From Candidatus Hodarchaeum mangrovi (GTDB lineage: Archaea > Asgardarchaeota > Heimdallarchaeia > Hodarchaeales > Hodarchaeaceae): 64,000 nucleotides of DNA. Of the stretch, positions 3,956-33,199 are shown piece after piece. A program made the translations under genes and the position numbers. The notes beneath the pieces are model-generated. The model was given only the letters and a program-made list of their open reading frames with translations. It was not told where the DNA came from and made no database searches. Each line of letters starts with the position of its first letter. Position 1 is the stretch's first letter. The stretch spans positions 1-64,000 of the forward strand of contig JAEOUE010000197.1 of the NCBI GenBank assembly GCA_016839515.1, given 5' to 3'.

Positions 3956-4116
3956 AGAAAAAATGTAAAAAGAAAACTATTCCATCCTGAAAATTTTATT
4001 TCAAATAGACTCAATTGATTTAATATAGTAATATTTTTGATATAAGATGACTTTCAATATAACTAAAGAATTAATAAATTACATTCTTAGCTCAGTAAAA
4101 TCATGGAGTAAGATGA

Positions 4117-5784: not shown

Positions 5785-5813
5785 AATAAAAATATTAAAA
5801 ATGGATTTATAAT

Positions 5814-6161: not shown

Positions 6162-6542
6162 ATAAAATCACTGTTTGTTCTTAAATTATAAATTTTGTCT
6201 AATTAGATATTTAAAATGTTCTATCTGTCTTTCTACAATATTTTTAATTGGATAATTTGCGTTATAAATTAAATTCAGCTTTTTTGTATTAAAAATGTTG
6301 GAAGATATAAATTATACAAAATCACTCATTGAAATAAAAAAAAGCCAAGACTTGAAAAAAGTTATATGAGACTGATCTCAATCTTCCTACCAAATGTAAT
6401 TCTTCTATTATTAATAGATAAAAATGAACAATTATTTTAATCAAGGCAAATGAATTCTCTTTCTAGTCTCAAAAACTAGAAATATTTCCTTCCTTTAAAT
6501 TAAAATTAATCAAATACAATATATAATGGGGAAATAAACCTA

Positions 6543-9095: not shown

Positions 9096-10465
9096 ACTTT
9101 CCACCCCAGTTTAAAAATACTGAAACCATCAGTTTGGGTTATATGTGGAAAGAGTCTTTGACCTAAAGGAAATTGAGGACTTGAAACACCAACTATGATT
9201 TTTTGAGGTTTTAGTTCAAAATTAGGGAAATTCTGTAGAAACCTATGGATTACATGCTCATTTTCAAGAGGGTGTAGTGAACATGTTGAGTAAACAATGA
9301 AACTATTAGAATCGTCTTTAAGAACAGTAGAAACATTTGAAAGGAGAGTATATTGAAGATCACTCAACCATTTTGTTTGGTGTCGGTCAACACGCCATTT
9401 TGAATCAGGTCGTGAGGAAAAAGTTCCAGATCCTGAACAAGGTGCGTCAATAAGGATTTTGTCGAATCTAAAACTGAAATTTGGATGGATTCTTAGATCA
9501 GATATAACAGGGTCTATGCTTTTTAGATCAAATAATTCAATTTTTTTCTTTAATTCTTTCATACGCCTTATGTTGTTATCAATAGCAATTATTCTACCTG
9601 AATCTTGTTGTAAAGAAGCAAGATGAGTTGTTTTCCCTCCTGGAGCTGCACATGCATCTAAAATTAGTTCATGGGGCCTTGGATCGATTATATGGGAAAC
9701 AAGAGCAGATCCTTTATTCTGAACGTAATAGAAATTTTTTTTAAAGGAATTAATACGGGGAATAGGAATTTTCCATGAGATGACCCTAATAACATCATCC
9801 AAATCAGGATCTTCTTTAAATTCAACCTCTTCAGAACTTAATCTTTCTAAAATTTCAGATTTATCATAATGTAATAAGTTTAATCTTAAATATAATGGGA
9901 GATTAAGATTTCCTGCCTTTATTATTTGTTTTGTGGTTTCTAATCCATAAAAATTGATATAGTCACGGACTAACCATGTTGGATGTGCAAATTCAACTCC
10001 TAGTCTTTCTTCTTTGTTTTGAATTAATTGTAAATAAGAATCCCTATCCCATTTTAAAAGATTGGAAATTAAATTTTCTAATAAATTAGTCAGTTGAGGA
10101 TGCTTTATTTTATCAATAATTTGTTTACATGATTGAATCCACTCTGAATCCTTCTTATAAGTATCTGAAATTAGAATATAGGTTATAACTTTTAATAAAT
10201 TTCGTATATACACTGGAATTTTAAAATTAATCCGTTTTTGAACGTACAAATGAATTAATCGATTAATAATATTTTGAAATCTGACTGTTTCAAAAACTAG
10301 CTGATGAACTTGGGAATAATTTTCCTGATTTCCATCCTCCCAGATAATAGAAAATATCTTCATTGCATTTCTTAATGAGACCTGATTTTTTTGATAGTAT
10401 AAGATGATCTTTGCCGCGTTTTCAATTAATAGCAATCTTATTCTTGAATCAATGCCCTGGCTCAA
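9092..10465 (-). CDS. RsmB/NOP2/Sun family RNA m5C methyltransferase
   Basis: LDACAAPGGKT, DAPCSGSG and YSTCSLHPLENE motifs. Confidence 0.93.
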   Translation of the reverse strand: MSQGIDSRIRLLLIENAAKIILYYQKNQVSLRNAMKIFSIIWEDGNQENYSQVHQLVFETVRFQNIINRLIHLYVQKRINFKIPVYIRNLLKVITYILISDTYKKDSEWIQSCKQIIDKIKHPQLTNLLENLISNLLKWDRDSYLQLIQNKEERLGVEFAHPTWLVRDYINFYGLETTKQIIKAGNLNLPLYLRLNLLHYDKSEILERLSSEEVEFKEDPDLDDVIRVISWKIPIPRINSFKKNFYYVQNKGSALVSHIIDPRPHELILDACAAPGGKTTHLASLQQDSGRIIAIDNNIRRMKELKKKIELFDLKSIDPVISDLRIHPNFSFRFDKILIDAPCSGSGTFSSRPDSKWRVDRHQTKWLSDLQYTLLSNVSTVLKDDSNSFIVYSTCSLHPLENEHVIHRFLQNFPNFELKPQKIIVGVSSPQFPLGQRLFPHITQTDGFSIFKLGWKV

Positions 10466-11589
10466 ATCCTAACACCTTTTTTCTCTTCAAAGACAAATTT
10501 TTGCTTCATGTTTCTAAAAACTATCCCATTAAACTTTATACCACTAAATTCATCACCTTCCTGAATATCTTCGATATAAAAAGTATCAATATAGGACAGA
10601 TCAAAAGATAACATGTCCATAATTTGTCCCAAATTTTCTTTTGGATCAATATTAATTAATTGATATTTTGTGAGATCTAAGTCTACCTTTTTAGGATTCC
10701 CTTCAATAAAGGATTTTATAGGAATTTTTTCTAATTTTTTCCTTTTAAAGTCCCAATACTCAATTTTTCCGTCTCCTGATGAAATTATTTGTAAAAAATT
10801 GTCATTAATAAGAATAAAATCACCAGTCTCAAAAGGAGGTAGATTAATAAGTACAACAGGTATTCTGGGATATTCTTTCCACTTTGATTTATCAAATCCC
10901 GAAAATTCTGTAGTGATACTTACTATTCCATTATAATTTTTAGCGAAGATTCTTCCAACATTGCTTGCAGAAGGTTTCGTTTGAAATAGAGCGTCTAAAC
11001 CATTTTTGACAAATAAAATTTTTGATAAAGGATTTTTACCATTGGATTGAGGGAAATTTGAACTCAAATTTTCAATTTCTGAGGCCCACTGTTTCAATGT
11101 GTTCTCAGACTCATCCTTTTGACTTCTTATTTGGATTTTAGAGGTATATACATCAGTGAATCTCTCACGACAATCAGGACAATCCCCCCAGTTTATATCA
11201 GCTTCAAAATTATCATTAAATTCTATTAAAGGACTAAATATGTCAGGGTTAGCGAAAAAATGAATTTTACCTATAATACTTATAGGAATATTGTCTTCAT
11301 TGAAGCTTAAATGGACATCTTCAAGAATTATATCTTTTGGACGATAATTAAATTTCCATTCTTTTACAATATATTTTGATAGAGCTGAATCTACTTTTTG
11401 GGAGCCAACATCTGCGAGGAAAAAACTTTTCCAATGTCCATTTATAAAAATTAACTCACAATGGATACAGGATACAATTTTAAGATTTATTTTTTCTCTT
11501 ATTAGTGTATTAGCCTCAATGTAACATTCTTTGCATTGGTGCTTAAAAAATTCTTCTTTTTTGCCACATATAATGCATTGAGAATCCAT
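10462..11589 (-). CDS. nmd3: NMD3 family large-subunit biogenesis protein
   Basis: N-terminal CxxC/CxxC/CxxC, later CPDC...YTSKIQIRS; typical NMD3-DUF424-aIF2beta gene order. Confidence 0.85.
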   Translation of the reverse strand: MDSQCIICGKKEEFFKHQCKECYIEANTLIREKINLKIVSCIHCELIFINGHWKSFFLADVGSQKVDSALSKYIVKEWKFNYRPKDIILEDVHLSFNEDNIPISIIGKIHFFANPDIFSPLIEFNDNFEADINWGDCPDCRERFTDVYTSKIQIRSQKDESENTLKQWASEIENLSSNFPQSNGKNPLSKILFVKNGLDALFQTKPSASNVGRIFAKNYNGIVSITTEFSGFDKSKWKEYPRIPVVLINLPPFETGDFILINDNFLQIISSGDGKIEYWDFKRKKLEKIPIKSFIEGNPKKVDLDLTKYQLINIDPKENLGQIMDMLSFDLSYIDTFYIEDIQEGDEFSGIKFNGIVFRNMKQKFVFEEKKGVRI

Positions 11590-16893: not shown

Positions 16894-17298
16894 TTATCCG
16901 AGAATTTCCCCTATTTTTCTTGCAGCTTCCTTTAAATCAAGGAACAATAATCCTAATTTGACAGTTCGATTTGCTGATGCAGTAAGGACAGCTTTTGTAC
17001 CAGCTTGTACTGAAATCAAATAACCACTGTCTCCTTCAACTAATATCCTACTCATTTCTCCTTTACCTGTTTCCATAACTGCTCTCTCTCCTAAACTCAA
17101 TATAGCGGCAGTCATTGCTGCAATACGAACATCATCTAATCCTTGTGGTAATATGGGAGGGAATGAAGAAATTGGTAATCCTTCTAAAGAAACTACACTG
17201 GCAAAATCGATAGCTGGGAGTTTACTAACAAAAGCTTCCAGTACCTCAATGATTTCTTTATGAATTTGGAGGTCTGTTTCAGAATCTGGGATATACAT
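16894..17298 (-). CDS. Roadblock/LC7 (MglB-like) protein
   Basis: ASVVSLEGLPI, RIAAMTAAILSLGER and KLGLLFLDLK motifs. Confidence 0.93.
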   Translation of the reverse strand: MYIPDSETDLQIHKEIIEVLEAFVSKLPAIDFASVVSLEGLPISSFPPILPQGLDDVRIAAMTAAILSLGERAVMETGKGEMSRILVEGDSGYLISVQAGTKAVLTASANRTVKLGLLFLDLKEAARKIGEILG

Positions 17299-17618
17299 CT
17301 TAATAACGCCTTTTAGTCAGATGGAAGTTCCTTTTTTACGTTTTAAAGGGTTTTATGAGTGATAATCTGAATCGAATCAATAAATTGAGATATGCAACTG
17401 CATTTTTCTCAATCTTCTATTTAACTATATCCATTTTCACCTAGAAGACCCTGTATAAATTATATACCTCTAGAATAATAATATAAAATAGCTGTGGAAT
17501 ATACTAATAATATTTGAAGATTAATAATACCATGGGCATTTATACTTTAGGAAAGCTATAAAAAAGAGTAAATATTTTTAGTTAAAATTTGGAAGCAACT
17601 TCAAATATGGGATTGTAA

Positions 17619-17879
17619 TTGAAAGAGATTAAGAAAGAAAGGAAATCCGAATTTACACAAGAACCAGTTCTATTTCAAATCGGAAAGAAAGGAATTACTG
17701 AAAACTTGATAGAAGAGCTAGAAGATCAATTGAAACAAAAAAAATCAGTGAAAGTAAGATTCTTAAAAAATTCGCCCTATAATAATCGTGAGGAAGCATT
17801 CGAAGTATTAAGACAAAGCTTACCTGCAATGGCAAAGATAATTGAAATAAAAGGTTGGACCGCTATAATCAATTCCTAG
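17619..17879 (+). CDS. YhbY/CRM RNA-binding protein
   Basis: QIGKKGITENLIEELEDQLK...VKVRFLK motif. Confidence 0.85.
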   Translation: MKEIKKERKSEFTQEPVLFQIGKKGITENLIEELEDQLKQKKSVKVRFLKNSPYNNREEAFEVLRQSLPAMAKIIEIKGWTAIINS

Positions 17880-17907
17880 GAAATTATCTGGATTTTTTTT
17901 AAATATT

Positions 17908-18498
17908 TTAATTTCCTTTTCTCTCAAAATAAATTTGTGTCATTAGAACTTCTCTTGCAAGAGATTGAAATGCTCTTTTTATACCAATACCTGTCGTAGC
18001 AACGGTTTCATAAATCGGAAAATTGTTCAATTCAAGTTTTTTTATGAGCTCAGTTTTTGAGACTGCATCTGGGACATCTCTTTTATTTAAAGCTATAATT
18101 AATGGTATATTTTTGCCAAGCTGATCATTTAAATGCATTTTTAGTTCTCTGAAGGATTCTATATTCTCATTGAGTTGTGAAGCACTCGAATCTACAACGA
18201 AAAGGACTCCATCAACTCCTTGAAGCACAATTTTACGCTGGTTTTTATGTCTCTCTTGTCCAGCTGTCGTATATACATCAAATACAACTCCTTTAGTTGC
18301 TTGCATTGGCACAAAATCAAAAAACAGCGTTCTTCCCATTGGATCTTCGATTTTTGTGAATTTTCCCTTCTCTAATCCATCAACCATTTTATATAACCAA
18401 GCAAGTGTGGTAGTTTTTCCACAGAGAGAAGGTCCATAGAAAACAATTTTAAATCTCTGTCGACCTTCAGCATCTTTTCGCATCCAAGTCTTCTCCAT
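17908..18498 (-). CDS. MglA-family small GTPase
   Basis: KIVFYGPSLCGKTT, GRTLFFDF, TTAGQ, VLQGVDGVLFVVDS and NKRD motifs. Confidence 0.92.
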   Translation of the reverse strand: MEKTWMRKDAEGRQRFKIVFYGPSLCGKTTTLAWLYKMVDGLEKGKFTKIEDPMGRTLFFDFVPMQATKGVVFDVYTTAGQERHKNQRKIVLQGVDGVLFVVDSSASQLNENIESFRELKMHLNDQLGKNIPLIIALNKRDVPDAVSKTELIKKLELNNFPIYETVATTGIGIKRAFQSLAREVLMTQIYFERKGN

Positions 18499-18528
18499 TA
18501 AGAAAAGGAGTAGATTAAAGAAGATTTT

Positions 18529-19023
18529 TCAGAATTTTTCTAATTCACGCAATGCTGCTTCTAATTCATCTTTTTCCAAGCTCGTACGAACCTCAGGAAC
18601 AGCAGAGGGTGTTCCTGTTATCTTTCGTGTTGGTCTTCCAGCCAAAAATTCATCTAAAATTGAACTTAGTTCCTCATTCGCCTTTCTCATTAGTAAGCGA
18701 ATCATACCAATATTTACGTCTGCATCCGAAATGATTGTTAAAATACCCCTACCACATGCGCTAGCAAAGATTTTGCCTGTATCAAATTCAGACGTAACAA
18801 TGTCTAATCCACCAATTGTTAGGTTTGATCCTTGTTCTGCTGAAGCCATAAATACTGCGGATGCGATGGCTCCGATCCCGTCTACATCAACTGAAACATA
18901 GCTGAATTTCGAAACATGAGCGATAGTGAGACCAGTTCGATCAACAAGAATAACTTTCTTAATACCTGGCTCGCTTTTTATGATCTTGCTTAGTACTGTG
19001 TCAAATCTCCTAGGATCAATCAA
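18529..19023 (-). CDS. Roadblock/LC7 (MglB-like) protein with C-terminal extension
   Basis: VILVDRTGLTI, GAIASAVF and VNIGMIRLLM motifs; directly upstream of the MglA-like gene. Confidence 0.9.
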   Translation of the reverse strand: MIDPRRFDTVLSKIIKSEPGIKKVILVDRTGLTIAHVSKFSYVSVDVDGIGAIASAVFMASAEQGSNLTIGGLDIVTSEFDTGKIFASACGRGILTIISDADVNIGMIRLLMRKANEELSSILDEFLAGRPTRKITGTPSAVPEVRTSLEKDELEAALRELEKF

Positions 19024-23162: not shown

Positions 23163-24164
23163 ATGGTGATCATAAGAATGAAGGATTATCTGTTAAAGGC
23201 TAGTAATGCCTTAACTCAGTTAAATAATACTGTTTCTATTAATGCCCGAAGTATGGCTGACGTAGTTTTAAAGATTTATACTGAGTTCGAAGAATATAGG
23301 TATATTGCTGAAACTATTCCTGATTTTATAATTCGTCCAGATAATACAAAATCAAATCTTAAAGCAAGTGGTGAGATCCGAGTAGCACAGTTATTAACCT
23401 CTATTCTGTGTGATCGAATAACAGAATTGTCTTTAAAGTTATGTGAATCTCTTGAATTCAGAGAGGAAGAAGTTGATGTCAAATTAGAAATCAGGGAGAT
23501 AAAAGATCAAGTATTCCGATTAGGTGAAGTGATCCATGTCCAACAAAAACTAGCTGATGGTGCTCCTGTATCAACAGAGGCGATTCAAGATTTAAGTAAA
23601 CGTTACGAAGCTAGAATAATTCAGCTAGAACAAGAACTCCTTAAAAAAGAGGGACGCGCGTTAACAATTACTGCATTAGATGCCGTTAAAAAGCCTAAAA
23701 TATTTGGTAAAGAGAAATTCAAATCTTCACTAGGAGATCTTATTTTAAGTTTTGGAAAAAATCTTCGTGCTAGCTCTGGGGGGTATATATCTCTTGCAAA
23801 TCTTTATACTGCCCTTAAAGAGCAAGTTCCAGACATTAATTTTTCAACAAAGGATCTAGAAGAAGTTTGTAAGATTCTAGCTAAACAAGACCTAATTTCG
23901 GGTCTTACAAAAAGATCTGGGGTTAAAATAGTAGAATTTATACCTGTTAATTTAGGAGAAGATGCAAAGAAAATATTTTCTTTAGCATCAAAAAAAGGGT
24001 TTGTAACATATGAGGAGGTTATCCTGGGAACAAAATGGGATCAACCACGTGTTGATCGTGTCCTTGAAAGCCTTGTAAATCAGAAAATAGCTCGAAAAGT
24101 ATCTAGTCTTGATTCTGGGGATCAGTATTTCTTCCCTGGATTGTATGGAGAAGATAATTGGTAG
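23163..24164 (+). CDS. ESCRT-II Vps22/Vps36 (EAP30)-like tandem winged-helix protein with N-terminal helical/coiled-coil region
   Basis: GGYISLANLY...STKDLEEVCKIL and GFVTYEEV...KWDQPRVDRVLESLV...YFFPGL resemble the SNF8/Vps22 C-terminal winged-helix domains. Confidence 0.8.
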   Translation: MVIIRMKDYLLKASNALTQLNNTVSINARSMADVVLKIYTEFEEYRYIAETIPDFIIRPDNTKSNLKASGEIRVAQLLTSILCDRITELSLKLCESLEFREEEVDVKLEIREIKDQVFRLGEVIHVQQKLADGAPVSTEAIQDLSKRYEARIIQLEQELLKKEGRALTITALDAVKKPKIFGKEKFKSSLGDLILSFGKNLRASSGGYISLANLYTALKEQVPDINFSTKDLEEVCKILAKQDLISGLTKRSGVKIVEFIPVNLGEDAKKIFSLASKKGFVTYEEVILGTKWDQPRVDRVLESLVNQKIARKVSSLDSGDQYFFPGLYGEDNW

Positions 24165-24174
24165 GTAATGAAAA

Positions 24175-25059
24175 ATGACTGAAGTTGATACAGAAAGATT
24201 TGGTGGATTATTTCGTAAAATCGGGGATGCAGTTCATATTGGTACAAAAACGTTCAAAGGAAAGACAATTCTTGGCTCTCAATTTGGATCTGATGCTTTA
24301 ATATGGAGGATAAAATCTGATGATGTAGAAAATTTTCGTAAAATAGACGGATTCATCGTAAAAGATCCAGAAAATGCTATCCTCCTTCAATCAGGGACTC
24401 TCGTAGGCGTTGCTGGAAGCGGAATATATGAACTTGATAAAGATGCAAAAAAACCTGGTAGTGAAATTATCTGGGTTACAAAACGAGAATTTGTTATTAA
24501 ATGGGGTAGTCCTGGAGTTTATACAACTGATAATATTATGGTTGGATGTTTTGGCATCTCTCGTATGAGAGTAGTAAATCCTCGGAATTTTATTATGAAT
24601 ATTGTATCACATAAACAATATTATACTAGTGAAGAATTAAGAAACTGGGTTAAACAGACAATTACCTCTGCAGTTAAACATGTTATGTCACGTTATACCG
24701 TTCCTGAATTATTAAAGGAAAGAAGGACTTTAGCTATTCAAACGAAATCCGAACTAGCTCCTGAGACATCTAGATGGGGTTTAGAACTTGTAGGATTAGA
24801 TATTGGGGGTTTTAAAGTACCAGATGAGTACCAAGCCCTACTTTCATATGAGATTGAAAAACAGGTTTTAGAAACCCAAAAAGAATTGGATGAAGCACGT
24901 AAATCCATGAATGAAGTTTCTGAACTGATAAAGAAGTATGAACATATGATAGAACAAGCTGATGAAATGTTCTTATCAGGAAAATTATCAGAAGAACGAT
25001 ACAAAGAACTAACAGATAAATATTCAAAAAAATTAGCTAAACTAAAGGCTCAATTTTAA
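24175..25059 (+). CDS. SPFH/band-7 domain protein (YdjI-like) with C-terminal coiled coil and SHOCT-like motif
   Basis: LIWR...IVKDPENAILLQSG...GIYEL, IKWG, RWGLELVGLDIGG; C-terminal FLSGKLSEERYKEL. Confidence 0.8.
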   Translation: MTEVDTERFGGLFRKIGDAVHIGTKTFKGKTILGSQFGSDALIWRIKSDDVENFRKIDGFIVKDPENAILLQSGTLVGVAGSGIYELDKDAKKPGSEIIWVTKREFVIKWGSPGVYTTDNIMVGCFGISRMRVVNPRNFIMNIVSHKQYYTSEELRNWVKQTITSAVKHVMSRYTVPELLKERRTLAIQTKSELAPETSRWGLELVGLDIGGFKVPDEYQALLSYEIEKQVLETQKELDEARKSMNEVSELIKKYEHMIEQADEMFLSGKLSEERYKELTDKYSKKLAKLKAQF

Positions 25060-25069
25060 TAACCAGCCT

Positions 25070-26836
25070 TTACATTTTCCGAGTTTGGAGGGAACCTCCA
25101 CAATCTGGACATGTAGTTACCCCTACAGCTTTGATTTCCTCATAACAATTAGCACAGATATTATTTCTGCATGATATGCACTGAAATCCAATTGCTGAAT
25201 GATTAGCTAGATTACATATGCTACAATCGAACTTAAAACCAAGCTTTTCAAGAATGATAGAAGTAGATGGAATGTCAATATACCCATTTATCTCTCCATA
25301 AATAATTAAATCCTCAATTTCTCTTATTATATTAGATTCTGAATCTTTAATCTCTCTAAAAATCTCTTGAAGGGGAACTTTCCTTGTTTTTTTATCTTCT
25401 ATTAAAAATTTTAAATTGAAATTCAAACTAGGGGGCGAGTCAATTTTTGAAAATTCATCTAAATACCATCCATTTTTCAGTGGTCCTTTTTTGCAAAAAT
25501 AACACTGCTCAGCACTAACAAGGTTGAAAGAATGTGTATATGTTATTCTACAGTCAGGACAATTCCTAGGAAGGTCTATAATAAATGCAGCGATATTCCC
25601 GCAAAATGGACATTCATGTTTACTATTTAAGGGTCTGCAATCAGAACATACAATCCTTCGGCAATTTTGACACTCATAATAAAGATTTGGATCTGAATAA
25701 GAAGAAGTATCAATTTGACAAAATACTTCAAACTTCTTCACACCTCGAATGAGAAATGGAGAGGAACTTTCACCAGCAATAATACGAAAACCAAGGACTA
25801 AGGATAAATTTATGATTACATTTAATAATAAATCAGTATCTAAATTAAGATTTCGTGCAATTGATTCTACATCTATTCCTCTATCTAGCCAGATTTCTAA
25901 TCGCGGAGAAATATAGACATTCTCTCTAATAATCCCATCTAAACTTTTATTTATTTTATTTAAAAATGAAATAAACTCTAAATATTCAATATTAAAGCGT
26001 TGTAACCAGAATTCAATCGGAATATGACGATAAATATAGATATCAAAGAGTATTTGCGAAACCATATGGCTTATTGAGTATATATGTTGTTGATCAGAAG
26101 AAAAAAGGAAAGGTATTCCTTTACAATTTTCTTTTAACATTTTTTGGCATTTTTCAATATCAATTCTAAATAACCTGCTAAGAGTCTTTAGAGATATTTC
26201 TGGTTCAAGAATAAAGGTAGTATTGAGAAAACGTTCGAAAAACTTGATATCCTTCTCAATTTGGTTTGGAGTCGAAAAATCTAAAAAAGTTAGATTATAT
26301 ATACGATTATTTAATGGATCTATATATCCGTAAAAGGTTCCTTGTTGTGCCATTAAATCTAAAATGGCTTCTAAGTGTTCTTCGGACCAATTGATTTGTT
26401 TTAAAAGAAATTTGAGGTCTATACTTCCTGTTTTTCCTAGTATATTCTGCAGAAAAATCATAGCTCCATTTGGTGTAAAAAAATATCTTCGAATCCGGTC
26501 AAAGAATCCATCATATTTCTGAAGTGATTGAAACATCACAATCTCTAGGATCTCTCCAGGTAAATTGGTTGCATCAATCAAATCACAAATGTCTACATTT
26601 CCTTTTTGGGTTAAATTATGTTCAATTAATTCATTAATGTAAGAAAGCGGAATGTAAAAATCATCATCTGGTGTTAAAATTCCATTCAACACTTTTTCAC
26701 TAATGCTTTTTCTTATAAAGAGAGCGATTTTTTGAAGGTCTTCTGAGCTATCAAAAGATTGAAGAGACACAGGTTCTGTCAGTTTCTGAGCGAAATCTAG
26801 CCATTTATCCTCTTTTTTTCGAAACATATTATTCAT
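25070..26836 (-). CDS. Winged-helix/PCI-repeat protein (UFL1/DDRGK1-like) with RING-like Zn fingers; candidate E3 ligase
   Basis: PCI-type motifs GTFYGYIDP and IIYGEINGYID; UFL1-like N-terminal segment; internal and C-terminal four-pair Cys clusters (CSIC-CISC-CANC-CPDC). Confidence 0.6.
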   Translation of the reverse strand: MNNMFRKKEDKWLDFAQKLTEPVSLQSFDSSEDLQKIALFIRKSISEKVLNGILTPDDDFYIPLSYINELIEHNLTQKGNVDICDLIDATNLPGEILEIVMFQSLQKYDGFFDRIRRYFFTPNGAMIFLQNILGKTGSIDLKFLLKQINWSEEHLEAILDLMAQQGTFYGYIDPLNNRIYNLTFLDFSTPNQIEKDIKFFERFLNTTFILEPEISLKTLSRLFRIDIEKCQKMLKENCKGIPFLFSSDQQHIYSISHMVSQILFDIYIYRHIPIEFWLQRFNIEYLEFISFLNKINKSLDGIIRENVYISPRLEIWLDRGIDVESIARNLNLDTDLLLNVIINLSLVLGFRIIAGESSSPFLIRGVKKFEVFCQIDTSSYSDPNLYYECQNCRRIVCSDCRPLNSKHECPFCGNIAAFIIDLPRNCPDCRITYTHSFNLVSAEQCYFCKKGPLKNGWYLDEFSKIDSPPSLNFNLKFLIEDKKTRKVPLQEIFREIKDSESNIIREIEDLIIYGEINGYIDIPSTSIILEKLGFKFDCSICNLANHSAIGFQCISCRNNICANCYEEIKAVGVTTCPDCGGSLQTRKM

Positions 26837-27001
26837 CCAATAAGCTCGAGAACATCTTCAAGCAAATCGTCATCTATAATCATTTATATTTTGTTAATTA
26901 AATTCTAAATTATTCTGGATCAATTTTTTTGAATGAAGTTTTTATTTGAAATCTTTTATAAAACTGTAATACATTTTCAAGAATATCTTAGGTTTTGAAA
27001 T

Positions 27002-27322
27002 ATGAGTCATTCAGAATTTAGATGTATAAATTGTGGATATATTCCACATGAGTCTCCTGTATCAGGGAATTGGTATTGTCCCAAATGTGGAAAGCGATCA
27101 ACGATAAAAATTGAACAGCCTCTCCACGTTCGAAGTTATTTACGGCATAAAAGTGTTCATCAACGAAGTAAAGATGAAATATATAATGATATTTATAAAA
27201 AACTTACTCTAGAAGAAAAACAAGAATTGGGTTATAAAGAACCTTATATAAATCCAGTTCTATCTTCAGTAGAACCCAAAAAGAGGGAAACCATTCGTCT
27301 TTTCTTACCCTCTGATAATTAA
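27002..27322 (+). CDS. Small Zn-ribbon protein
   Basis: CINCG...CPKCG. Confidence 0.65.
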   Translation: MSHSEFRCINCGYIPHESPVSGNWYCPKCGKRSTIKIEQPLHVRSYLRHKSVHQRSKDEIYNDIYKKLTLEEKQELGYKEPYINPVLSSVEPKKRETIRLFLPSDN

Positions 27323-28560
27323 TTATTTTTTTTCTCAAATATAACTTTAATTCTTTTGTCTTTTTCACCATATAAGGGTGAAAAAGTTATTCGATCCCCA
27401 TTCGAGAGAATATCCTTTATTATATCTCCCTCATTCAGATGTTTATTTCCTCTAAATGCTAAGAATTCATCTTCATATTTATTATTTACTTCCTGAACAA
27501 TTTCTATGAATCTATTATCTGGATTTACATGGATCATTGATATTTGATCTGAATTTATTCCCCTATTTCCACAAACAAAACAATCGGGATCTGCTAATAG
27601 TTTAAAAGTGGAAAAAGTGCCTGTAAGTCCTGAATAAATAGTTAAAGAAGGAATCTGGAACCTCTCCGATTTTCGTAATCTTCTCAAGATTTTTTGATCT
27701 TTTCTTTTAAGAGAAGACCTTTTTTCAAAAAAAAGTGTGTTAATTATCAATTGAGATTGAATACCACTAATTACTGAATTGACAGTTATTATACTTGGAA
27801 TATGAGTAAGTATGAGTTGTTTTAATTCTTTGATATCATAACTAGGAAATTTGTGATTTTTTGTGCAATTATTTGCAATTTTCTGAAGAAATTTCATATC
27901 TTTATTAGAATTTTCTCTGGGCTCTCGATTATATCTTGTATAAAAGGAATAAAGAGCCTTCCAAGCACAATGTTCACGAATTCTCGGAGTTCCAACCAAT
28001 GTACATGGAGCTGTCCAAATATTTGTTTCATCTGGTGGGGGAGGATTGTCACATGCTAAACAAGATGAAAAATTCTTCTGAATATATTGAACTTGTCCAA
28101 TGTATCCATCAGTAGCAGAATCAATATATGGTTTAGATAATTCAATTGCTAATGAATTAATATATTGACGAGCTAAAAAATTATCGACGCATCCAGCAAT
28201 AATGTCAACTTCTTCAAAAATTTCAGTAGGGATGTCTTGGATTTTAATTGAAAATGCTTCAACATTTACTTGTTTATTGAACATCGTACTAATTCTATCT
28301 TTCGCAACTTCTGCTTTACTCTTTCCAATATCTGTTTCTCGAAAGAGCATTTGACGATTTAGATTTGAATATTCAATTGTATCAACATCAACCAAAATTA
28401 ATTTTCCAACGCCTAGGAGTGACAGATTTTTTATAACCTCACTTCCAGTGCCACCTATGCCCACAACAAGAACTGAACTATTCTGGATTAATTTTTGATC
28501 CCATAAAACTAATCGTTCTTGTCTATCATACCGCAAGTTATATTGATCTTCTTGTGACAT
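27319..28560 (-). CDS. Ubiquitin-like activating enzyme E1 (ThiF family, UBA2/UBA3-like)
   Basis: RYDRQ, GIGGTG, DVDTIEYSNLNRQ, catalytic-Cys segment PCTLVGTPRIREHC, Zn pairs CLAC/CFVC and a probable C-terminal ubiquitin-fold domain. Confidence 0.92.
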   Translation of the reverse strand: MSQEDQYNLRYDRQERLVLWDQKLIQNSSVLVVGIGGTGSEVIKNLSLLGVGKLILVDVDTIEYSNLNRQMLFRETDIGKSKAEVAKDRISTMFNKQVNVEAFSIKIQDIPTEIFEEVDIIAGCVDNFLARQYINSLAIELSKPYIDSATDGYIGQVQYIQKNFSSCLACDNPPPPDETNIWTAPCTLVGTPRIREHCAWKALYSFYTRYNREPRENSNKDMKFLQKIANNCTKNHKFPSYDIKELKQLILTHIPSIITVNSVISGIQSQLIINTLFFEKRSSLKRKDQKILRRLRKSERFQIPSLTIYSGLTGTFSTFKLLADPDCFVCGNRGINSDQISMIHVNPDNRFIEIVQEVNNKYEDEFLAFRGNKHLNEGDIIKDILSNGDRITFSPLYGEKDKRIKVIFEKKNN

Positions 28561-28593
28561 TGAAATAATCCTTTTAAATAAAAAGAAAAGGTA

Positions 28594-28923
28594 TTATCCA
28601 CCCTTAATCTGATCAGGGACAATCATAAGCATTGCATTTTCTTCAATGTTGTAACTTGATAAGCTATTTGATGGATTCATGCGTCTACCTTTGTATAATA
28701 GAGCAATTGGCACTACTTCAGGAATATTGAACGCATCACGAGCTGCTCCAATAGCTTGAAAAACGCTCCCATTCATATTGATATATTTTTCACGAACGTT
28801 TTGATCTGGAGGGAGCTGAGGATCTTTAAAACGTACTTTCACCATTTTTTCTATACTTGAATCGGAGGGACTTTTTCTGACTGAATTATCCCATATAACA
28901 TCTTTTTTAGACAATATTATCAC
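28594..28923 (-). CDS. Ubiquitin-like protein with exposed C-terminal GG and UFM1-like features (alternative start ATG 28845, 83 aa)
   Basis: LLYKGRRMNPSNSLSSYNIEENAMLMIVPDQIKGG* is a beta-grasp pattern; directly upstream of E1. Confidence 0.85.
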   Translation of the reverse strand: MIILSKKDVIWDNSVRKSPSDSSIEKMVKVRFKDPQLPPDQNVREKYINMNGSVFQAIGAARDAFNIPEVVPIALLYKGRRMNPSNSLSSYNIEENAMLMIVPDQIKGG

Positions 28924-28934
28924 CTTTTATTAAA

Positions 28935-29735
28935 TTAGACATATAGTAAACGTTCAATTTCGGATAGAGTTGTTAAAAGATCAATTCTACCTTTTGCATA
29001 ATCCTCTAAAGGACCTTTAATGAGCGGATATGTGTTTAGTAGTTCACTTTCGAGCCCTATCGGATAGTTCTTTTTTCTTTTGATAATTAAATTAATGATT
29101 TCCCCATCTTGTGCATAGAATTTTACAATAATATCTTTTGTACTAACCGTTGAATCATAGTTTGTAAGGATTTTTTTGATAAGTGGGTCTTTTTCATATT
29201 CAACTGTTGAAAATTCAGGTTTTTTTATGCTTACATCAACCTCCCCTAAGGCTTTTGGAATTTTATCCTCCGCAAGCTTGTAGATTTCTTCTAATACGTT
29301 GAGAATGCTTGAAGAATTAGGAGTCCAAGATTTCATCGACGGTAAATCGTTGAGTTCACAATCTAGAATTTCTCGAAGTTGACTGGGTCCATCGATATAT
29401 GGACGAGCAGGCAGATCATCTAAAACTACGAGCAATGGAAATGCATAGGCCCCTACTTGCATTTTGATTCTGATTTTTCCAATCTCATCCCCAATATATT
29501 CACCAGGAAAGTTTTCTAATACTTTTTGCCCTTCTTGGTAAATCAAATAGTAAGATTCAGCTTTTAATTCATCATCGACAATCGATTCATTTTCAGCTGT
29601 GAAAGAGGACCGTTTTATGTAATTTGTAAGATCACAATAATCACACTTCACAGGAAATTGAAAAATGGGTTTTTGAGAGAGAGGAGCACCACAACCATTA
29701 CACTGCGCAATATTACTCTGAATTTCGAAATCCAT
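28935..29735 (-). CDS. Zn-ribbon + UEV-like (inactive E2 fold) protein, Vps23/TSG101- or BRCC45-like
   Basis: CNGCGAPL...CDYC ribbon; LPSMKSWTPNSSSILNVLEEI resembles the end of a UEV domain; C-terminal KGRIDLLTTL resembles a steadiness box. Confidence 0.55.
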   Translation of the reverse strand: MDFEIQSNIAQCNGCGAPLSQKPIFQFPVKCDYCDLTNYIKRSSFTAENESIVDDELKAESYYLIYQEGQKVLENFPGEYIGDEIGKIRIKMQVGAYAFPLLVVLDDLPARPYIDGPSQLREILDCELNDLPSMKSWTPNSSSILNVLEEIYKLAEDKIPKALGEVDVSIKKPEFSTVEYEKDPLIKKILTNYDSTVSTKDIIVKFYAQDGEIINLIIKRKKNYPIGLESELLNTYPLIKGPLEDYAKGRIDLLTTLSEIERLLYV

Positions 29736-29983
29736 ACATTCTCACCAAAGATAATTTTATGTGTTTTTTACGGAAGCTAATTTTAAATCTTAATTAATTA
29801 TGACTAAGATATTGTTTTATTTAACTTACAGATTATAGATAGGGTTGAAGGATTTATTAATTAATTCATCTCGGATGAATACGATTCTTTGTATGATGAC
29901 TTAGAATACAGACCTTAAAAAGATAGCTCATTCTGGTGCAATTCAACCATAAATAAGGCAACCTTTTAAATATTGAGGACTGA

Positions 29984-30583
29984 ATGAGTGTTTTAAGAGA
30001 TCCATTATATCGAACTCTAAGTTATTACCGAAGTGAGATAGCTATGCAAGACCTGCATTCAAGAAGGTTAAGAGAAGAATTTAAGAGAATGTTAAAGATA
30101 TTTCCACCAAAATCCAGTCATATTAAATGGAAAATAATCGATAATGACCTTCATCATTATCGTGCGACTATTTTTGGTAAAACTGGGACACCATTTGAAG
30201 GTGGAAAATGGGATATTACAGTAGATTTACCACCCGAGTATCCGTTCAAACCTCCCATTGTTAACTTTATAACACCTATCTGGCATCCGAATATTGCTGT
30301 TGGAAAAACAAAATGGACTTGGGGATCTAATGTATGTTTAAGCTTGGTGAATTGGAATAATTTGGGGAAACCAGGCGGCTGGAAAGAAACGATTACTTTA
30401 CCCAGTGTATTTGAACATATTGAAATGATGTTGGATATATATGAAAGTGTTGATAATGCTGACTTTCCTGAGTATCTTGTTGATCCAGAGGATCCATTTA
30501 ATCCAGAAGCAGGAAAAGAGATGAAAGAAAACTTTCGGGCTTACTGGGAAAAAGCTTCCGATTGGACAAAGAAGCATAGCTGA
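29984..30583 (+). CDS. Ubiquitin-conjugating enzyme E2
   Basis: RRLREE, GTPFEGG, PEYPFKPP, HPNI, catalytic VCLSL and DPFNPEA motifs. Confidence 0.95.
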   Translation: MSVLRDPLYRTLSYYRSEIAMQDLHSRRLREEFKRMLKIFPPKSSHIKWKIIDNDLHHYRATIFGKTGTPFEGGKWDITVDLPPEYPFKPPIVNFITPIWHPNIAVGKTKWTWGSNVCLSLVNWNNLGKPGGWKETITLPSVFEHIEMMLDIYESVDNADFPEYLVDPEDPFNPEAGKEMKENFRAYWEKASDWTKKHS

Positions 30584-30599
30584 ACTAGAGGAAATTCGA

Positions 30600-31178
30600 A
30601 TGCCTTTAGAATCTAGCAACGAAAAAAATAATCAAAAAAATCATCTAAATGAGGTTAAGAAACCTTCATCAAAGAACAAAGACAAGAAAAAGATTGTTAA
30701 ATTAGATATTAAAGTAAAATCGGTTTCGATCTACTGGAAACACATTCAGAAGATGACCGATTTTTCCGTACGATCTATACCTAACGAAGCTATCGGTCTT
30801 CTCGGAGGGAGAGAAATTAGGAAAGGTGAACTTTTGGTAGAAAAAGTAATTCATATATCCACTGGCGACGAAGTCTCAGTATCTTTTTCAGATGATGATT
30901 TCAAGTCTTTTGAGGATCTTCTTAATGAAAATAATCATTGCATTGGATGGTGGCATTCTCATCCAGGATATGGATTGTTTCTTTCTCCAACTGATTTAAC
31001 AACTCATATTTATTCCTTTCAAGTTCATAATCCACTATCTGTGGCACTAGTTTTAGATCCAACAAGAATTAATAATCAATGTGCTGATTTTACATGTTAT
31101 CAAGTAAAAGGAGAAAATGGGATTTCACCCTTTATTTATAACGAAATAGCTAGCTATATCATAAAATCAAAAGACTAA
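30600..31178 (+). CDS. JAMM/MPN+ isopeptidase (Rpn11/CSN5-like)
   Basis: EAIGLLGG, GWWHSHPGYGLFLSPTD and ALVLDP motifs. Confidence 0.95.
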   Translation: MPLESSNEKNNQKNHLNEVKKPSSKNKDKKKIVKLDIKVKSVSIYWKHIQKMTDFSVRSIPNEAIGLLGGREIRKGELLVEKVIHISTGDEVSVSFSDDDFKSFEDLLNENNHCIGWWHSHPGYGLFLSPTDLTTHIYSFQVHNPLSVALVLDPTRINNQCADFTCYQVKGENGISPFIYNEIASYIIKSKD

Positions 31179-31237
31179 TTTAGGTTAAATATAAGTTGTT
31201 TCGAGATATTAATTGTTTTTCAAAGGAATAATAAAAA

Positions 31238-32050
31238 ATGGTGTCCACATCATTATCTTTTAGTTTTTATAAGCGTATTAGTGGTCAAATAGCTCATTTT
31301 TTCCTTCAAAGCGGTTCAGCAACTGATTATACAATAATTGACTATTTTTTTGTTTTTTTAGGTCCAGCTGCAGTACTTTTCTTTACGTTCTACCTTTGGT
31401 GGTCAGGAAAAAGGAAGAATCGCAAGATTATGAGGATAACACAGGAGTCTTTAATCCAAGTATTCTCAAAAGAGTTCGAAGATCTCATTATGGAGCAGAT
31501 GAGTTCAAATGGGGGCCTTTTATTTCCTAAATACAAAAAATCTACTGTAATTCCCTTTAAGGACTTTCGTGTTGTATTTGCTCTCGAAGAACGTCATTTA
31601 ATGCTATCTGTTATTATTTCTTGGTTTTCAGGAGCTAAAGATTATATTGCATTAGAAGCTAATCCTAAACGTGGAAAAACATCAACCAAAATTCAAATAA
31701 TTCCTAAGAAAGAAGAAGGACAAATTAAGAAACACCAAGATTTGCTATTTACTCTCGATGAAATAGAATTAGGGGTGAGACAGCTTGATGAGACATATAT
31801 TTGGAAAGCATCATCAAGCCGATCAGGATTGTATTTTCTTTCAGATAAAACTCTCCTGAAAAATATACATAAATTGCGAAACAATCTTGTTCGAATTTCT
31901 ATAGATTCCTCAGATGATCCTTCTATTCGAATATACGTCAAGATAAATAAGGATTTAGACCTTGAACAGTTATACATAACATTTATGGCTTTGTGTGAGA
32001 GGGTTGACCAAGTATTTGATAAAACTGTAATGAAAAAAACTCGAAATTAG
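31238..32050 (+). CDS. Single-pass membrane protein, CCDC47/DUF1682 (PAT complex subunit)-like
   Basis: TM helix followed by WWSGKRKNRKI...FSKEF and LEERHLMLSVIISWFSGAKDYIALE, resembling the recalled CCDC47 segments GKNKNSRL...ESNF and LKRQDLLNV...DQV. Confidence 0.6.
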   Translation: MVSTSLSFSFYKRISGQIAHFFLQSGSATDYTIIDYFFVFLGPAAVLFFTFYLWWSGKRKNRKIMRITQESLIQVFSKEFEDLIMEQMSSNGGLLFPKYKKSTVIPFKDFRVVFALEERHLMLSVIISWFSGAKDYIALEANPKRGKTSTKIQIIPKKEEGQIKKHQDLLFTLDEIELGVRQLDETYIWKASSSRSGLYFLSDKTLLKNIHKLRNNLVRISIDSSDDPSIRIYVKINKDLDLEQLYITFMALCERVDQVFDKTVMKKTRN

Positions 32051-32073
32051 ATCAGACGAGAAAATTTTAAATT

Positions 32074-32637
32074 CTATAGGGTTTCTAATTTTTCAGTTAC
32101 ACGTTGTCGAAGCCACTCAAGTCCTTCTTCAACATTGAATCCAGTTTTCGCTGAAGTTGGTACAATTGCATAAGAATGTGTGGTAACTTTGTGGAGATTG
32201 AGAGCTCGAGCTACTTCTCCTGCAGAACCAGCATTTTCTAAATCTTGTTTATTAGCTAAAACCAATATAGGAATATTTTGAACGCGATCATTGTTAAGAA
32301 CATACTTCCATAATTCCTTTCTTGCTTCTTCATATCGTGCTTTATCAGCTGAATCAATCACATACACTATTCCCATGGAACCTGCCATGTAACTTTCCCA
32401 CAATGATTCACGGAATGCTTCTTGCCCTCCAATGTCCCACGAAATAAACCTTACATTTCCCGAGCTGAATTCATCAACATTCATTCCGAGAGTTCTAAAT
32501 GTGCTACTGTCAAATTCACCCGATGTAATTCTTTTAACAATCGTTGTTTTACCTGCGTGATCTAGCCCTAACCATGCAATTTTGACTGTTAGACGTTCTT
32601 TGGCAAATTTTGCTCTAAGTTTGGTTAAAAAGCTCAT
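32074..32637 (-). CDS. Arf-family small GTPase with N-terminal amphipathic helix
   Basis: GLDHAGKTT, TLGMN, WDIGGQ, NKQD and TSAK motifs. Confidence 0.93.
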   Translation of the reverse strand: MSFLTKLRAKFAKERLTVKIAWLGLDHAGKTTIVKRITSGEFDSSTFRTLGMNVDEFSSGNVRFISWDIGGQEAFRESLWESYMAGSMGIVYVIDSADKARYEEARKELWKYVLNNDRVQNIPILVLANKQDLENAGSAGEVARALNLHKVTTHSYAIVPTSAKTGFNVEEGLEWLRQRVTEKLETL

Positions 32638-32647
32638 TTTTGGGCAC

Positions 32648-33199
32648 CTATTTGTTCTTCCGTGTTATTATAATGCGAAATCTTTCACTCATCCACTGCC
32701 ATGGTTCATCAACTCCTTCTCCTGTAAGTGCTGAACAAGGATATACTGCAAATGTCCTTGGTCGCATACTAATTTCTCTTTCTAACCCTAATGATTCAAT
32801 TATCTTCTCTAAAGGCATTGCTTCAGCTAAATCTTGTTTATTAGCTAGGAAAAGAAAAGCTGAGTCCTCTGGGGCCCATTTAATTACTTGTTGCAACCAT
32901 TTCCCTGCTTCTTCAACTTTTGATTTATCTGCTGAATCAAAAACAAACACAATTCCTACTGACTTGGTTACGAAAGGTTCCCATAAACTAGTTGGATATG
33001 TAACCTGACCCCCCAGATCAGCAGCCATGACCTCAATATCTCCAATTTTTAGTGTTTCAATATTCATACCCATCGTAGGAACAGTTTCTAGGTTATCTTG
33101 TCCTTTCAATCTTCTTACTAATGTTGTTTTCCCTGCATTAGCTAATCCAACGAAGGTCATCTGATTTTCTATTTCACGACCGAATATTTTTGTTGGCAT
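32648..33199 (-). CDS. Arf-family small GTPase
   Basis: GLANAGKTT, PTMGMN, DLGGQ, NKQD and CSALTGEG motifs. Confidence 0.93.
   Translation of the reverse strand: MPTKIFGREIENQMTFVGLANAGKTTLVRRLKGQDNLETVPTMGMNIETLKIGDIEVMAADLGGQVTYPTSLWEPFVTKSVGIVFVFDSADKSKVEEAGKWLQQVIKWAPEDSAFLFLANKQDLAEAMPLEKIIESLGLEREISMRPRTFAVYPCSALTGEGVDEPWQWMSERFRIIITRKNK

Follow-up and report, generated by a model that had tools for sequence, protein, structure and literature searches.

UFL1 is an odd E3, namely a scaffold with neither a RING nor a HECT domain, and its origin is an open question; DDRGK1 is its anchor, and UFC1, UBA5 and UFM1 act together with it. Among archaea, Hodarchaeales have been proposed as one of the groups most closely related to eukaryotes, and a stretch of 64,000 nucleotides from one of them, Candidatus Hodarchaeum mangrovi (assembly GCA_016839515.1, contig JAEOUE010000197.1, positions 1 to 64,000; hereafter the window), carries a cluster of genes for ubiquitin-like (Ubl) conjugation at positions 23163-33199. 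In an earlier note on this DNA, the cluster was read as an ancestral or mosaic UFM1-like system, in which the Ubl is put on membrane-bound ribosomes by a UFL1/DDRGK1-like ligase and a CCDC47-like protein marks the translocon. Is the locus then a UFM1 system, a branch of the ordinary Asgard ubiquitin-ESCRT machinery, or a system of its own? As described below, the window locus is not a UFM1 system, and we give somewhat better than even chances to its being an additional, self-contained Ubl conjugation system distinct from the canonical ubiquitin-ESCRT locus. Judged by family profiles and a predicted structure, its 588-aa ligase appears to be genuinely related to the UFL1 scaffold, with RING-like zinc fingers attached.

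The gene cluster

The region contains twelve densely packed genes, each matched by an open reading frame (ORF) at the coordinates given, and Pfam names nine of the twelve. With the forward and reverse strands of the window denoted as + and -, respectively, the genes are as follows:

23163-24164, +, EAP30 winged-helix protein (Vps22/Vps36-like, ESCRT-II type), 333 aa; Pfam EAP30 7.5e-9 at residues 173-307
24175-25059, +, SPFH/Band 7 protein, 294 aa; Pfam Band_7 1e-17, Band_7_1 1.5e-13
25070-26836, -, putative E3 ligase with a winged-helix array and Cys-rich fingers, 588 aa; Pfam PCI-type winged helix 8.8e-6
27002-27322, +, small zinc-ribbon protein with CxxC at residues 8 and 26, 106 aa; weak Pfam DUF5055 match 7.3e-4
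27319-28560, -, E1 activating enzyme, 413 aa; Pfam ThiF 9.4e-53
28594-28923, -, ubiquitin-like modifier, 109-aa ORF; Pfam Rad60-SLD 4.2e-5, ubiquitin 1.6e-4
28935-29735, -, p266, an N-terminal zinc-ribbon protein, 266 aa; first gene of the p266-Ubl-E1 unit
29984-30583, +, E2 conjugating enzyme with the canonical UBC fold, 199 aa; Pfam UQ_con 4.7e-24
30600-31178, +, JAMM/MPN+ metalloprotease, 192 aa; Pfam Prok-JAB 4.5e-10, JAB 2.8e-8
31238-32050, +, CCDC47-like single-pass membrane protein, 270 aa; sub-threshold Pfam CCDC47 match
32074-32637, -, first Arf-family small GTPase, 187 aa; Pfam Arf 1.5e-47; 89-93% identity among relatives
32648-33199, -, second Arf-family small GTPase, 183 aa; Pfam Arf 5.3e-38, SRPRB 2.8e-13; 10 bp upstream of the first

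This inventory confirms the earlier note for nine of its ten kinds of gene, but not for the label of "UEV" given there to the 266-aa protein. The 106-aa zinc-ribbon gene, which was absent from that list, adjoins the ligase gene in 21 related loci and also in an operon of a sister family (G078, see below). As calculated from the coordinates, the gaps between genes are 11 bp for p266-Ubl, 33 bp for Ubl-E1, 16 bp for E2-JAMM, 59 bp for JAMM-CCDC47-like, and 10 bp for EAP30-SPFH. The EAP30 protein has an N-terminal extension of ~170 aa, and the SPFH protein, with a coiled-coil-like C-terminal tail, is 73-81% identical across the 21 related loci.

The modifier and its enzymes

The C-terminus of the Ubl reads ...QIKGG directly before the stop codon, and the protein is built of an N-terminal extension of ~25 aa and a beta-grasp core of ~83 aa. 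Its 17 orthologues from related loci are 82-89% identical to it; 16 of them end at GG, and the other one has a single extra residue. In the wider family of 53 proteins, which carry labels from several Asgard classes, a first-hairpin motif and the C-terminal tail are strongly conserved, and distant members have 1-10 residues beyond GG. When the family was searched with Pfam, Rad60-SLD and ubiquitin were hit in 28/28 members and Ufm1 in 1/28, at an E-value of 0.13. Among the best 60 of 233 matches of the Ubl profile in the PDB, furthermore, only ubiquitin-type chains were found; single-domain E-values were weak (0.007-0.14), and the lower E-values for polyubiquitin are due to its repeats. A search of the ESM Atlas with the Ubl sequence returned only unnamed or ubiquitin/Rad60-SLD clusters. 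In these comparisons the modifier scores as ubiquitin/SUMO-like and not as Ufm1, contrary to the resemblance to UFM1 that had been claimed for it, and such a GG-ended modifier argues against a UFM1-like system. In mature UFM1, a single Gly is exposed. The last strand of the window Ubl, which contains a Pro, is reminiscent of UFM1, a lead rather than a test. We also noticed that the N-terminal extension (window 28846-28923, - strand) is conserved among the orthologues with an invariant Trp-Asp, and that some database entries begin at the 83-aa core.

The set of enzymes is complete, and the catalytic motifs are intact in the E1, E2 and JAMM protein. In the E1, a GxGGxG nucleotide loop is found at residue 34, and there are CxxC pairs at positions 167 and 327; in the PDB, this protein matched UBA1 (1.3e-37), SAE2 (3e-34), UBA3 (3.4e-28), ThiF (2.5e-22) and, below ThiF/MoeB, UBA5 (1e-17). 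As far as such sequence matches tell, it is of the canonical UBA1/UBA2/UBA3 type and not of the non-canonical UBA5 type. The E2 is likewise canonical, a UQ_con protein with HPN at residue 101 and the catalytic-type Cys118, and neither Cys118 nor the HPN residues vary across 11 sequences. E2 enzymes of the UFC1 type have no HPN motif. The canonical nature of the E1 and E2 had been anticipated in the earlier note and is borne out; it nonetheless counts against the UFM1-like system proposed in the same note. In the JAMM protease, the H-x-H-x7-S-xx-D motif is intact (HSHPGYGLFLSPTD at residue 119), and this protein is the probable de-conjugating and processing enzyme.

The remaining member of the p266-Ubl-E1 unit, p266, possesses an N-terminal CxxC...CxxC zinc ribbon and stays beside Ubl-E1 in the sister family (E 2e-67). 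No match to p266 was obtained in Pfam and no usable one in the ESM Atlas, and its family profile hit only a spurious SUMO2 repeat in the PDB (0.022). Profile-profile alignment (hhalign) with the E2 family gave a probability of 0.4% at low alignment diversity. At the level of sequence, the name UEV is unproven rather than excluded.

Separateness from the canonical ubiquitin locus

In the same genome, which is 91% complete, a canonical ubiquitin-ESCRT locus is found on another contig (C153) with two Snf7 genes, EAP30, a UEV-like E2 variant, E1, ubiquitin and E2. Given this separate canonical locus, the window cluster would therefore represent an additional, insulated Ubl system. Alternatively, the locus might be a paralogous branch of the ordinary Asgard ubiquitin-ESCRT system, with the Ubl as a second ubiquitin that feeds the ESCRT of C153 and with an extra Vps22/36-like reader. 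The EAP30 gene inside the cluster is indeed a paralogue of the canonical one (C153:13239-13895; the search of the genome gave these two EAP30 genes), and Pfam groups the Ubl with ubiquitin; against this, the Ubl is far from canonical ubiquitin, scoring 20 bits on PF00240 where the ubiquitin of C153 scores 52 bits. We take IPR018611 to be the UFL1 family entry. Published work describes Asgard ubiquitin-ESCRT clusters as including an E3 catalogued by IPR018611 (PMC9192718) and also reports a contextual link between SPFH proteins and archaeal ESCRT (PMC10936438), both of which fit a ubiquitin-ESCRT branch. Asgard ubiquitin-ESCRT loci are recognized by ubiquitin genes clustered with ESCRT-I, -II, -III and Vps4; at the window cluster, however, EAP30 is present, but no gene for ESCRT-III, Vps4, Vps25 or Vps28 was found, and the Snf7 genes of the genome are only on C153. 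The presence of an E1, an E2 and a protease within the cluster speaks for its insulation from canonical ubiquitin, and a UEV reader is not confirmed. We thus regard a branch of the canonical system as unlikely and prefer the additional Ubl system.

Further Ubl genes were noticed in the genome. On contig C304 (C304:171-3481), two ubiquitin-like ORFs, an E1, an E2 and a JAB protease are in a row, and these E1, E2 and JAB proteins are the closest in-genome paralogues of the window enzymes (E 2e-78, 5e-22 and 1e-15, respectively). One genome is hence equipped with at least three separate eukaryote-like Ubl cascades (C153, C304 and the window), which goes some way towards the multitude of Ubl pathways that run in parallel in eukaryotes. 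On contig C139, there is a compact operon (L101:8419-11441) of a JAB-like gene, an E1 (ThiF 3.6e-26), a 144-aa ORF and a short E2-like protein (UQ_con 6.2e-7) with HPK and not HPN. This operon was considered as the true UFM1-like system of the genome and rejected: it looks prokaryote-type, and the DDRGK match nearby is a generic AsnC-type winged helix-turn-helix protein.

A UFL1-like scaffold fused to RING-like fingers

The ligase has 62 relatives at E<=1e-3, with 39-99% identity over the aligned part; 57 of them are 560-591 aa long, the five others being shorter fragments of 329-466 aa, and those with names carry Hodarchaeales, Hodarchaeota, Heimdallarchaeota or Promethearchaeota labels of metagenome-assembled genomes (MAGs). 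Its AlphaFold2 model, with a mean predicted local distance difference test score (pLDDT) of 77.9, divides the protein into four parts, all on the - strand:

residues 1-366, window 25739-26836, -, winged helices 1 to 6 in a UFL1-like array, as modelled
residues 370-464, window 25445-25729, -, Cys-rich stretch with five CxxC pairs; low model confidence, pLDDT <50
residues 473-529, window 25250-25420, -, seventh winged helix, as modelled
residues 536-585, window 25082-25231, -, C4C4 RING-like finger with four CxxC pairs, which span residues 538-579

No significant match was obtained when the ligase sequence alone was searched against the PDB, and the signal comes only from family profiles or structures. 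Of the 45 matches (E<=10) that a profile of 35 family members (A1) gave among all PDB sequences, the top four were UFL1 or a DDRGK1-UFL1 chimera (6.7e-7, 5.9e-6, 5.9e-6 and 6.3e-6), pairing ligase residues ~21-169 with the N-terminal winged-helix domains of UFL1 (UFL1 residues ~20-250). Next to UFL1 came RING fingers (UHRF1, MAT1, BRE1, NOT4 and TRIM; E 0.007-0.25) at ligase residues 521-582. Consistently, a Foldseek search with the model gave UFL1 chains at ranks 1-5 (1.3e-9 to 1.4e-6), followed by SelB (2.5e-4) and then ESCRT-II and PCI proteins (~1e-2). UFL1 was also ranked first in a VIA search, and the structure searches agree on the ranking while differing on the margin of UFL1. Among the 35 family members, Pfam finds PCI in 27, E3_UFM1_ligase in 17 (best 3e-6) and C1_2 in 16; the window ligase itself matches E3_UFM1_ligase (PF09743) with an E-value of 0.0023 and 18.1 bits, under the cut-off of 23.2. 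In the C-terminal finger, all eight Cys residues are invariant in the 35 sequences, and the model has a pLDDT of 68-89 there.

The resemblance to UFL1 that the earlier note had seen in this protein is therefore upheld by both the family-profile search and Foldseek, and a specifically UFL1-like winged-helix array would favor a UFM1-like system; the RING-like fingers, which UFL1 lacks, would not. Nor could the proposed resemblance to DDRGK1 be reproduced: DDRGK1 alone matched the ligase profile at a best E-value of 0.35, with one winged-helix domain, and no DDRGK match of Pfam occurs in the window. Furthermore, a paralogue of 915 aa on contig C194, which ends in a weak RING/ZZ-like finger, passes the Pfam cut-off for UFL1 (23.7 bits). 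The ligase in the window is thus not necessarily the UFL1 orthologue, because a paralogue in its own genome matches Pfam UFL1 better. Another PF09743-like paralogue is on contig C179.

Signatures of UFMylation

We then searched the genome for the other components of UFMylation. Ufm1 (PF03671), UFC1 (PF08694) and the UFSP cysteine protease (Peptidase_C78) had no match at E<=1 in this 91%-complete genome, the protease of the cluster being of the JAMM type, and DDRGK (PF09756) was matched only at 0.06 by an AsnC-type winged helix-turn-helix protein on another contig. Over 400 Asgard genomes, PF03671 gave no match above its cut-off and 10 weak partial matches inside large proteins. Among the features that define UFMylation, only the likeness of the scaffold is present as far as sequences and models tell, and these absences count further against a UFM1-like system at this locus. 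Published work, on the other hand, speaks for such a system: the origin of UFL1 and DDRGK1 has been placed in Asgard archaea (PMC10183829), and structure-based searches have been reported to find Ufm1 homologues in nine Asgard clades, with one Lokiarchaeales UFM1-like model named in the supplement (PMC12962969).

The CCDC47-like membrane protein

The protein encoded downstream of the JAMM gene has a short N-terminus (~30 residues), a transmembrane (TM) helix at residues ~33-55 (window 31334-31402) followed by basic residues, and a cytosolic globular domain at residues ~60-267. It has 65 relatives (48-91% identity), all of archaeal length, and the named ones carry the same MAG labels as the relatives of the ligase. 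By sequence, the relation to CCDC47 is marginal, though it recurs among relatives: the match to PF07946 has an E-value of 9.3e-4 and 18.9 bits, against a cut-off of 27.7, and covers profile positions 10-263 of 326. This profile was matched at E<=0.1 in 17/34 orthologues (best 8.8e-6) and in 5/22 distant relatives (best 26.8 bits, below the cut-off of 27.7), and bacterial DUF3137 was matched in 3/22 of the latter, in one of them above its own cut-off. A PDB search with the single sequence gave nothing significant, and no CCDC47 was hit at E<=10 with two family profiles (A2 and A3). Against 1.84 billion representatives, profile A2 had 26 matches of 58-281 aa, none of the length of eukaryotic CCDC47.

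At the level of fold, the predicted structure settles the matter. The AlphaFold2 model (pLDDT 71.2, with a long helix at residues 33-75) retrieved ribosome-translocon chains as the top three matches in Foldseek: 7tm3_4 (5.7e-6, TM-score 0.54), 9i78_4 (1.7e-5, TM-score 0.56) and 6w6l_7 (2.5e-4). The CCDC47 of 9i78 is described as docked in three bodies, namely residues 76-370, 371-417 and 417-447 (PMC12572126); we read chain 4 as CCDC47, residues 76-370 as its transmembrane and globular domains and 371-447 as its latch because of this three-body docking. The structural match to 9i78_4 covers chain residues 76-372 and thus stops at the onset of the latch (371-447), whose helices bind the ribosome tunnel exit and Sec61; the archaeal protein is complete at residue 270, at the very point where a latch would follow. 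While the single TM helix and cytosolic globular fold of CCDC47 are present in the window protein, the Pfam gathering score is not reached. According to the model, then, the window protein shares the membrane-anchored globular module of CCDC47 without its ribosome/translocon-binding part, and the CCDC47 resemblance suggested in the earlier note holds as one of fold and remains marginal as one of sequence.

CCDC47 itself is a subunit of the PAT complex in the ribosome-bound multipass and SND3 translocons (PDB 7tut, 7tm3, 6w6l and 9i78), and its identity to the window protein is 8-11%; the latter has neither latch helices nor a sizeable N-terminal lumenal part. The relation to mycobacterial TtfA (PDB 6t84) and Pfam DUF3137, which are bacterial and without link to ubiquitin-like systems, suggests that the fold family is a broader, prokaryotic one, with CCDC47 as its possible eukaryotic branch. 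Prediction of a complex between the full-length ligase and residues 56-270 of the CCDC47-like protein, performed without controls, scored 0.00 in both runs and speaks neither way. A second CCDC47-like protein, a paralogue of 273 aa that matches the family profile at E 5e-60, was noticed at C147:5185-6006 (L100) amid unannotated ORFs and permeases, and two copies occur in many genomes of the same genus.

Conservation across Asgard genomes

In 22 related loci from species-representative genomes, the gene order is identical; 15 of the 22 are full, from the second Arf gene to EAP30, and the remaining seven end at contig edges with no deviation seen. The housekeeping genes on the flanks (GINS, eIF2-alpha, GNAT, ThrRS and PRTase) are, however, as syntenic as the cluster in all 22 loci, up to the contig ends, so that the synteny of the cluster reflects kinship and carries no functional signal. 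When whole genomes were searched (the 400 Asgard genomes, with orthologues counted at the thresholds used), the families were distributed as follows:

Ligase family, 23/400 genomes: its own genome, 21/21 of the same genus, and G078 of the sister family
Ubl family, 23/400 genomes: its own genome, 20/21 of the same genus, G078, and G119 of another family
CCDC47-like family, 111/400 genomes: many families

What holds together beyond the genus was more informative. In the sister family (G078), the genes for EAP30, SPFH, ligase, zinc ribbon and a small GTPase form an operon on one strand with gaps of 6, 0, 20 and 52 bp, p266-Ubl-E1 are together on a second contig, and the CCDC47-like gene is on a third. 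Distant lineages keep only Ubl-E1-E2-JAB, as seen in G119 and in metagenome contigs with Ubl-E1-E2 and JAB-Ubl (52-55% Ubl identity). From these arrangements, two robust units can be recognized: (a) Ubl-E1-E2-JAMM with p266 and (b) EAP30-SPFH-ligase-zinc ribbon. An operon structure is thereby observed in two families. The CCDC47-like and Arf genes, in contrast, are attached to the cluster only in the genus-level group of the window; among 20 loci from other families, the CCDC47-like gene is beside Ubl, E1, E2, JAB or ligase in none, and its neighbours vary, with Ras/Arf-type GTPases in four loci, KaiC-like ATPases in four, CstA in four and NAD(P)HX dehydratase in five.

These arrangements bear on two alternatives. 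In one of them, only Ubl-E1-E2-JAMM, perhaps with p266, is functional, and the rest are bystanders held by vertical inheritance in a slowly rearranging housekeeping region. The equally syntenic flanks, the retention of only Ubl-E1-E2-JAB in distant lineages and the unrelated neighbours of the CCDC47-like gene elsewhere would all be expected of bystanders. Nonetheless, EAP30-SPFH-ligase-zinc ribbon is a tight co-directional operon in the sister family, albeit apart from Ubl-E1 there, the ligase and the Ubl have the same narrow phyletic range, and E1/E2 systems generally need an E3; we consider bystanders to be a decidedly unlikely explanation.

The other alternative is the UFM1-like system acting on membrane-bound ribosomes. 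Besides the UFL1-like array and the published Asgard origins of UFL1/DDRGK1 and Ufm1 homologues, it draws on the membrane protein, which shares the TM-plus-globular fold of CCDC47 and is encoded 59 bp downstream of E2-JAMM on the same strand, and on the abundance of translation genes in the window, where an NFACT/NEMF homologue is 18 kb away. The translocon part of this proposal is nevertheless weakened by the missing latch, by a linkage to the Ubl genes that does not extend beyond one genus-level group (none of 20 loci elsewhere shows it, and in the sister family the CCDC47-like gene is on a different contig), by synteny that the housekeeping flanks share, and by the better match to Pfam UFL1 elsewhere in the genome (23.7 bits); a Pfam scan of the window proteins found no Sec61, SRP or uL24 gene within the cluster. 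Quality control at membrane-bound ribosomes or the translocon, the very idea that made the locus look exceptional, is thus unsupported, and together with the modifier, the enzymes and the absent UFMylation components described above, we judge a UFM1-like system to be very unlikely. Of the outcomes that the earlier note had itself named as speaking against this idea, a generic Ubl and genes not co-conserved beyond close kin were indeed found, whereas the matches to UFL1 and CCDC47 turned out to be not merely generic.

A few of these loci deserve description in their own right. In another genome of the sister family (G079; L113, C166), the CCDC47-like gene is part of a stretch (2235-9112) of proteostasis genes, namely those for a zf-AN1 protein, M50-type and YhfC-type membrane proteases, GrpE and Hsp70, and an M50 protease also adjoins the CCDC47-like gene in L077. 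In G119 (L114, C139; 127-6418), the gene next after Ubl-E1-E2-JAB encodes a 946-aa protein in which TRAP_beta (5.3e-14), CARDB and zinc-ribbon domains are found; this is, from its sequence, probably a surface protein with an Ig-like domain, though the Pfam name is translocon-related. In L020, L034 and other related loci, the cluster is found with its flanks on contigs labelled as Hermodarchaeota or Thorarchaeota, just as on those labelled as Hodarchaeota; some MAG labels look unreliable, because the whole-genome searches put all orthologues in one genus-level group.

A proposed conjugation system

If the cluster is an additional Ubl system, as we favor, the UBA1/2/3-type E1 would adenylate the C-terminal Gly of the Ubl and hand the Ubl to Cys118 of the UBC-type E2. 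The EAP30-SPFH-ligase-zinc ribbon module would serve as the E3 together with membrane-side partners; the charged E2 is most likely brought in by the C4C4 RING-like finger, in the manner of ordinary RING E3s, and the winged-helix array may hold the substrate or an adaptor. Targets might be selected at the membrane by the SPFH and Vps22/36-like proteins, in ESCRT-related sorting or the turnover of membrane proteins; the published association of SPFH proteins with archaeal ESCRT by context (PMC10936438) is a precedent. Conjugates would then be removed by the JAMM protease, which probably also trims the precursor in those relatives with residues beyond GG. The CCDC47-like gene may be co-transcribed with E2-JAMM in the window. 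As for the CCDC47-like protein and the two Arf GTPases, they may be substrates or may have joined the cluster locally.

Several points weigh against this proposal. The binding partners and substrates of the system and the interactions among its proteins are inferred, as is its membrane location, the last from the neighbours alone; the SPFH protein has no obvious TM segment in its sequence. The RING identity of the C-terminal finger is putative, being assigned from its Cys pattern and weak profile matches, and the middle Cys-rich region of the ligase was modelled at a pLDDT below 50. The flanks are as syntenic as the cluster itself, and the narrow range shared by the Ubl and the ligase counts for no more than one or two events in the evolution of related lineages. 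In G078, furthermore, the E2 and JAMM genes were not located. As for expression, 20 DNA datasets in 7 studies but no RNA dataset were listed among sequencing runs matching window 24175-33199.

Relation to known systems

The window locus resembles known systems in part. Asgard ubiquitin-ESCRT clusters, as described by Hatano et al. 2022 (PMC9192718), similarly combine Ub/Ubl, E1, E2, a JAMM-type protease, an E3 with the UFL1-type entry and ESCRT-II-type winged-helix proteins; in the window, however, a divergent Ubl takes the place of the modifier, genes for SPFH, CCDC47-like and Arf proteins are alongside, and the ligase consists of a winged-helix array with two Cys-rich modules. The ubiquitin operon of the Caldiarchaeum subterraneum type is also compact, with ubiquitin, E1, E2, a RING-type E3 and a JAMM protease (Rpn11) that processes the precursor (PMC6043591), but the E3 there is a small RING protein, whereas the RING-like finger here is on a 470-residue UFL1-like winged-helix scaffold, and most orthologues of the window-type Ubl need no processing. 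With the UFL1-DDRGK1 E3 complex (PDB 8ohd, 8qfc, 8b9x and 8c0d), the locus shares the tandem winged-helix scaffold; the scaffold in the window differs in carrying RING-like fingers and in having its first winged helix complete in one chain, where that of UFL1 is partial and completed by DDRGK1, and it is accompanied by an E1 and an E2 of canonical type and by a Ubl ending in GG.

Parts of these results are already published or contained in supplements, namely the Asgard UFL1-like proteins (also those in ubiquitin clusters), the CCDC47-like signature proteins and the Ufm1-like folds. E3 UFM1-ligase domains are reported in Asgard multidomain proteins (10.1101/2020.10.19.343400), and the supplement of PMC12962969 gives a Hodarchaeales protein that matches UFL1 over residues 12-356; CCDC47-like proteins are also among the eukaryotic signature proteins tabulated there, with credit to Liu et al. 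2021. In full-text literature, "Asgard" was not found together with "CCDC47", nor "CCDC47" with "TtfA". We found no description in the literature of the fusion of winged helices with RING, the EAP30-SPFH-ligase operon, the separateness from the canonical ubiquitin locus or the CCDC47-like protein without a latch, although published supplements may hold parts of these.

A UFL1-like scaffold with RING-like fingers, beside a canonical E1, E2, Ubl and JAMM protease, would be a concrete and testable intermediate. Its components are all small and soluble, which would suit reconstitution in vitro, and Hodarchaeales strains are reported to be in culture (preprint 10.1101/2025.02.26.640444). It is conceivable, though we think it quite improbable, that the cluster preserves the state of UFL1 before UFM1, in which a winged-helix scaffold E3 bearing a RING worked with a canonical E1, an HPN-containing E2 and a GG-ended Ubl at a membrane with SPFH, ESCRT-II-like and possibly CCDC47-like proteins. 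If this is true, eukaryotic UFMylation arose when the scaffold was kept and its RING lost, the first winged helix was divided between UFL1 and DDRGK1, and UBA5 and UFC1 were recruited, and CCDC47 acquired its ribosome-binding latch later.

Other genes in the window

Outside the cluster, the NFACT/NEMF (Rqc2) homologue, an archaeal ribosome quality-control factor, is encoded at window 50781-52805 (+; NFACT_N 3.8e-55, NFACT-R_1 6.9e-28). According to the title of PDB entry 9gy4, NEMF is found on the 60S subunit together with the UFL1 complex in eukaryotes. A VTT-domain membrane protein of the VMP1/TMEM41/DedA family (window 3107-3955, +; 1.4e-22) and an NMD3 homologue (window 10462-11589, -; 2.1e-23) are encoded amid translation genes, namely those for eS8, eIF2-beta, eL15, RNase P subunits and Obg-like GTPases. 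At window 16894-19023 (-), finally, a small Arf/Ras-type GTPase is located between two Roadblock/LC7 proteins, an arrangement that recalls a Rag/Ragulator or MglA/MglB module.

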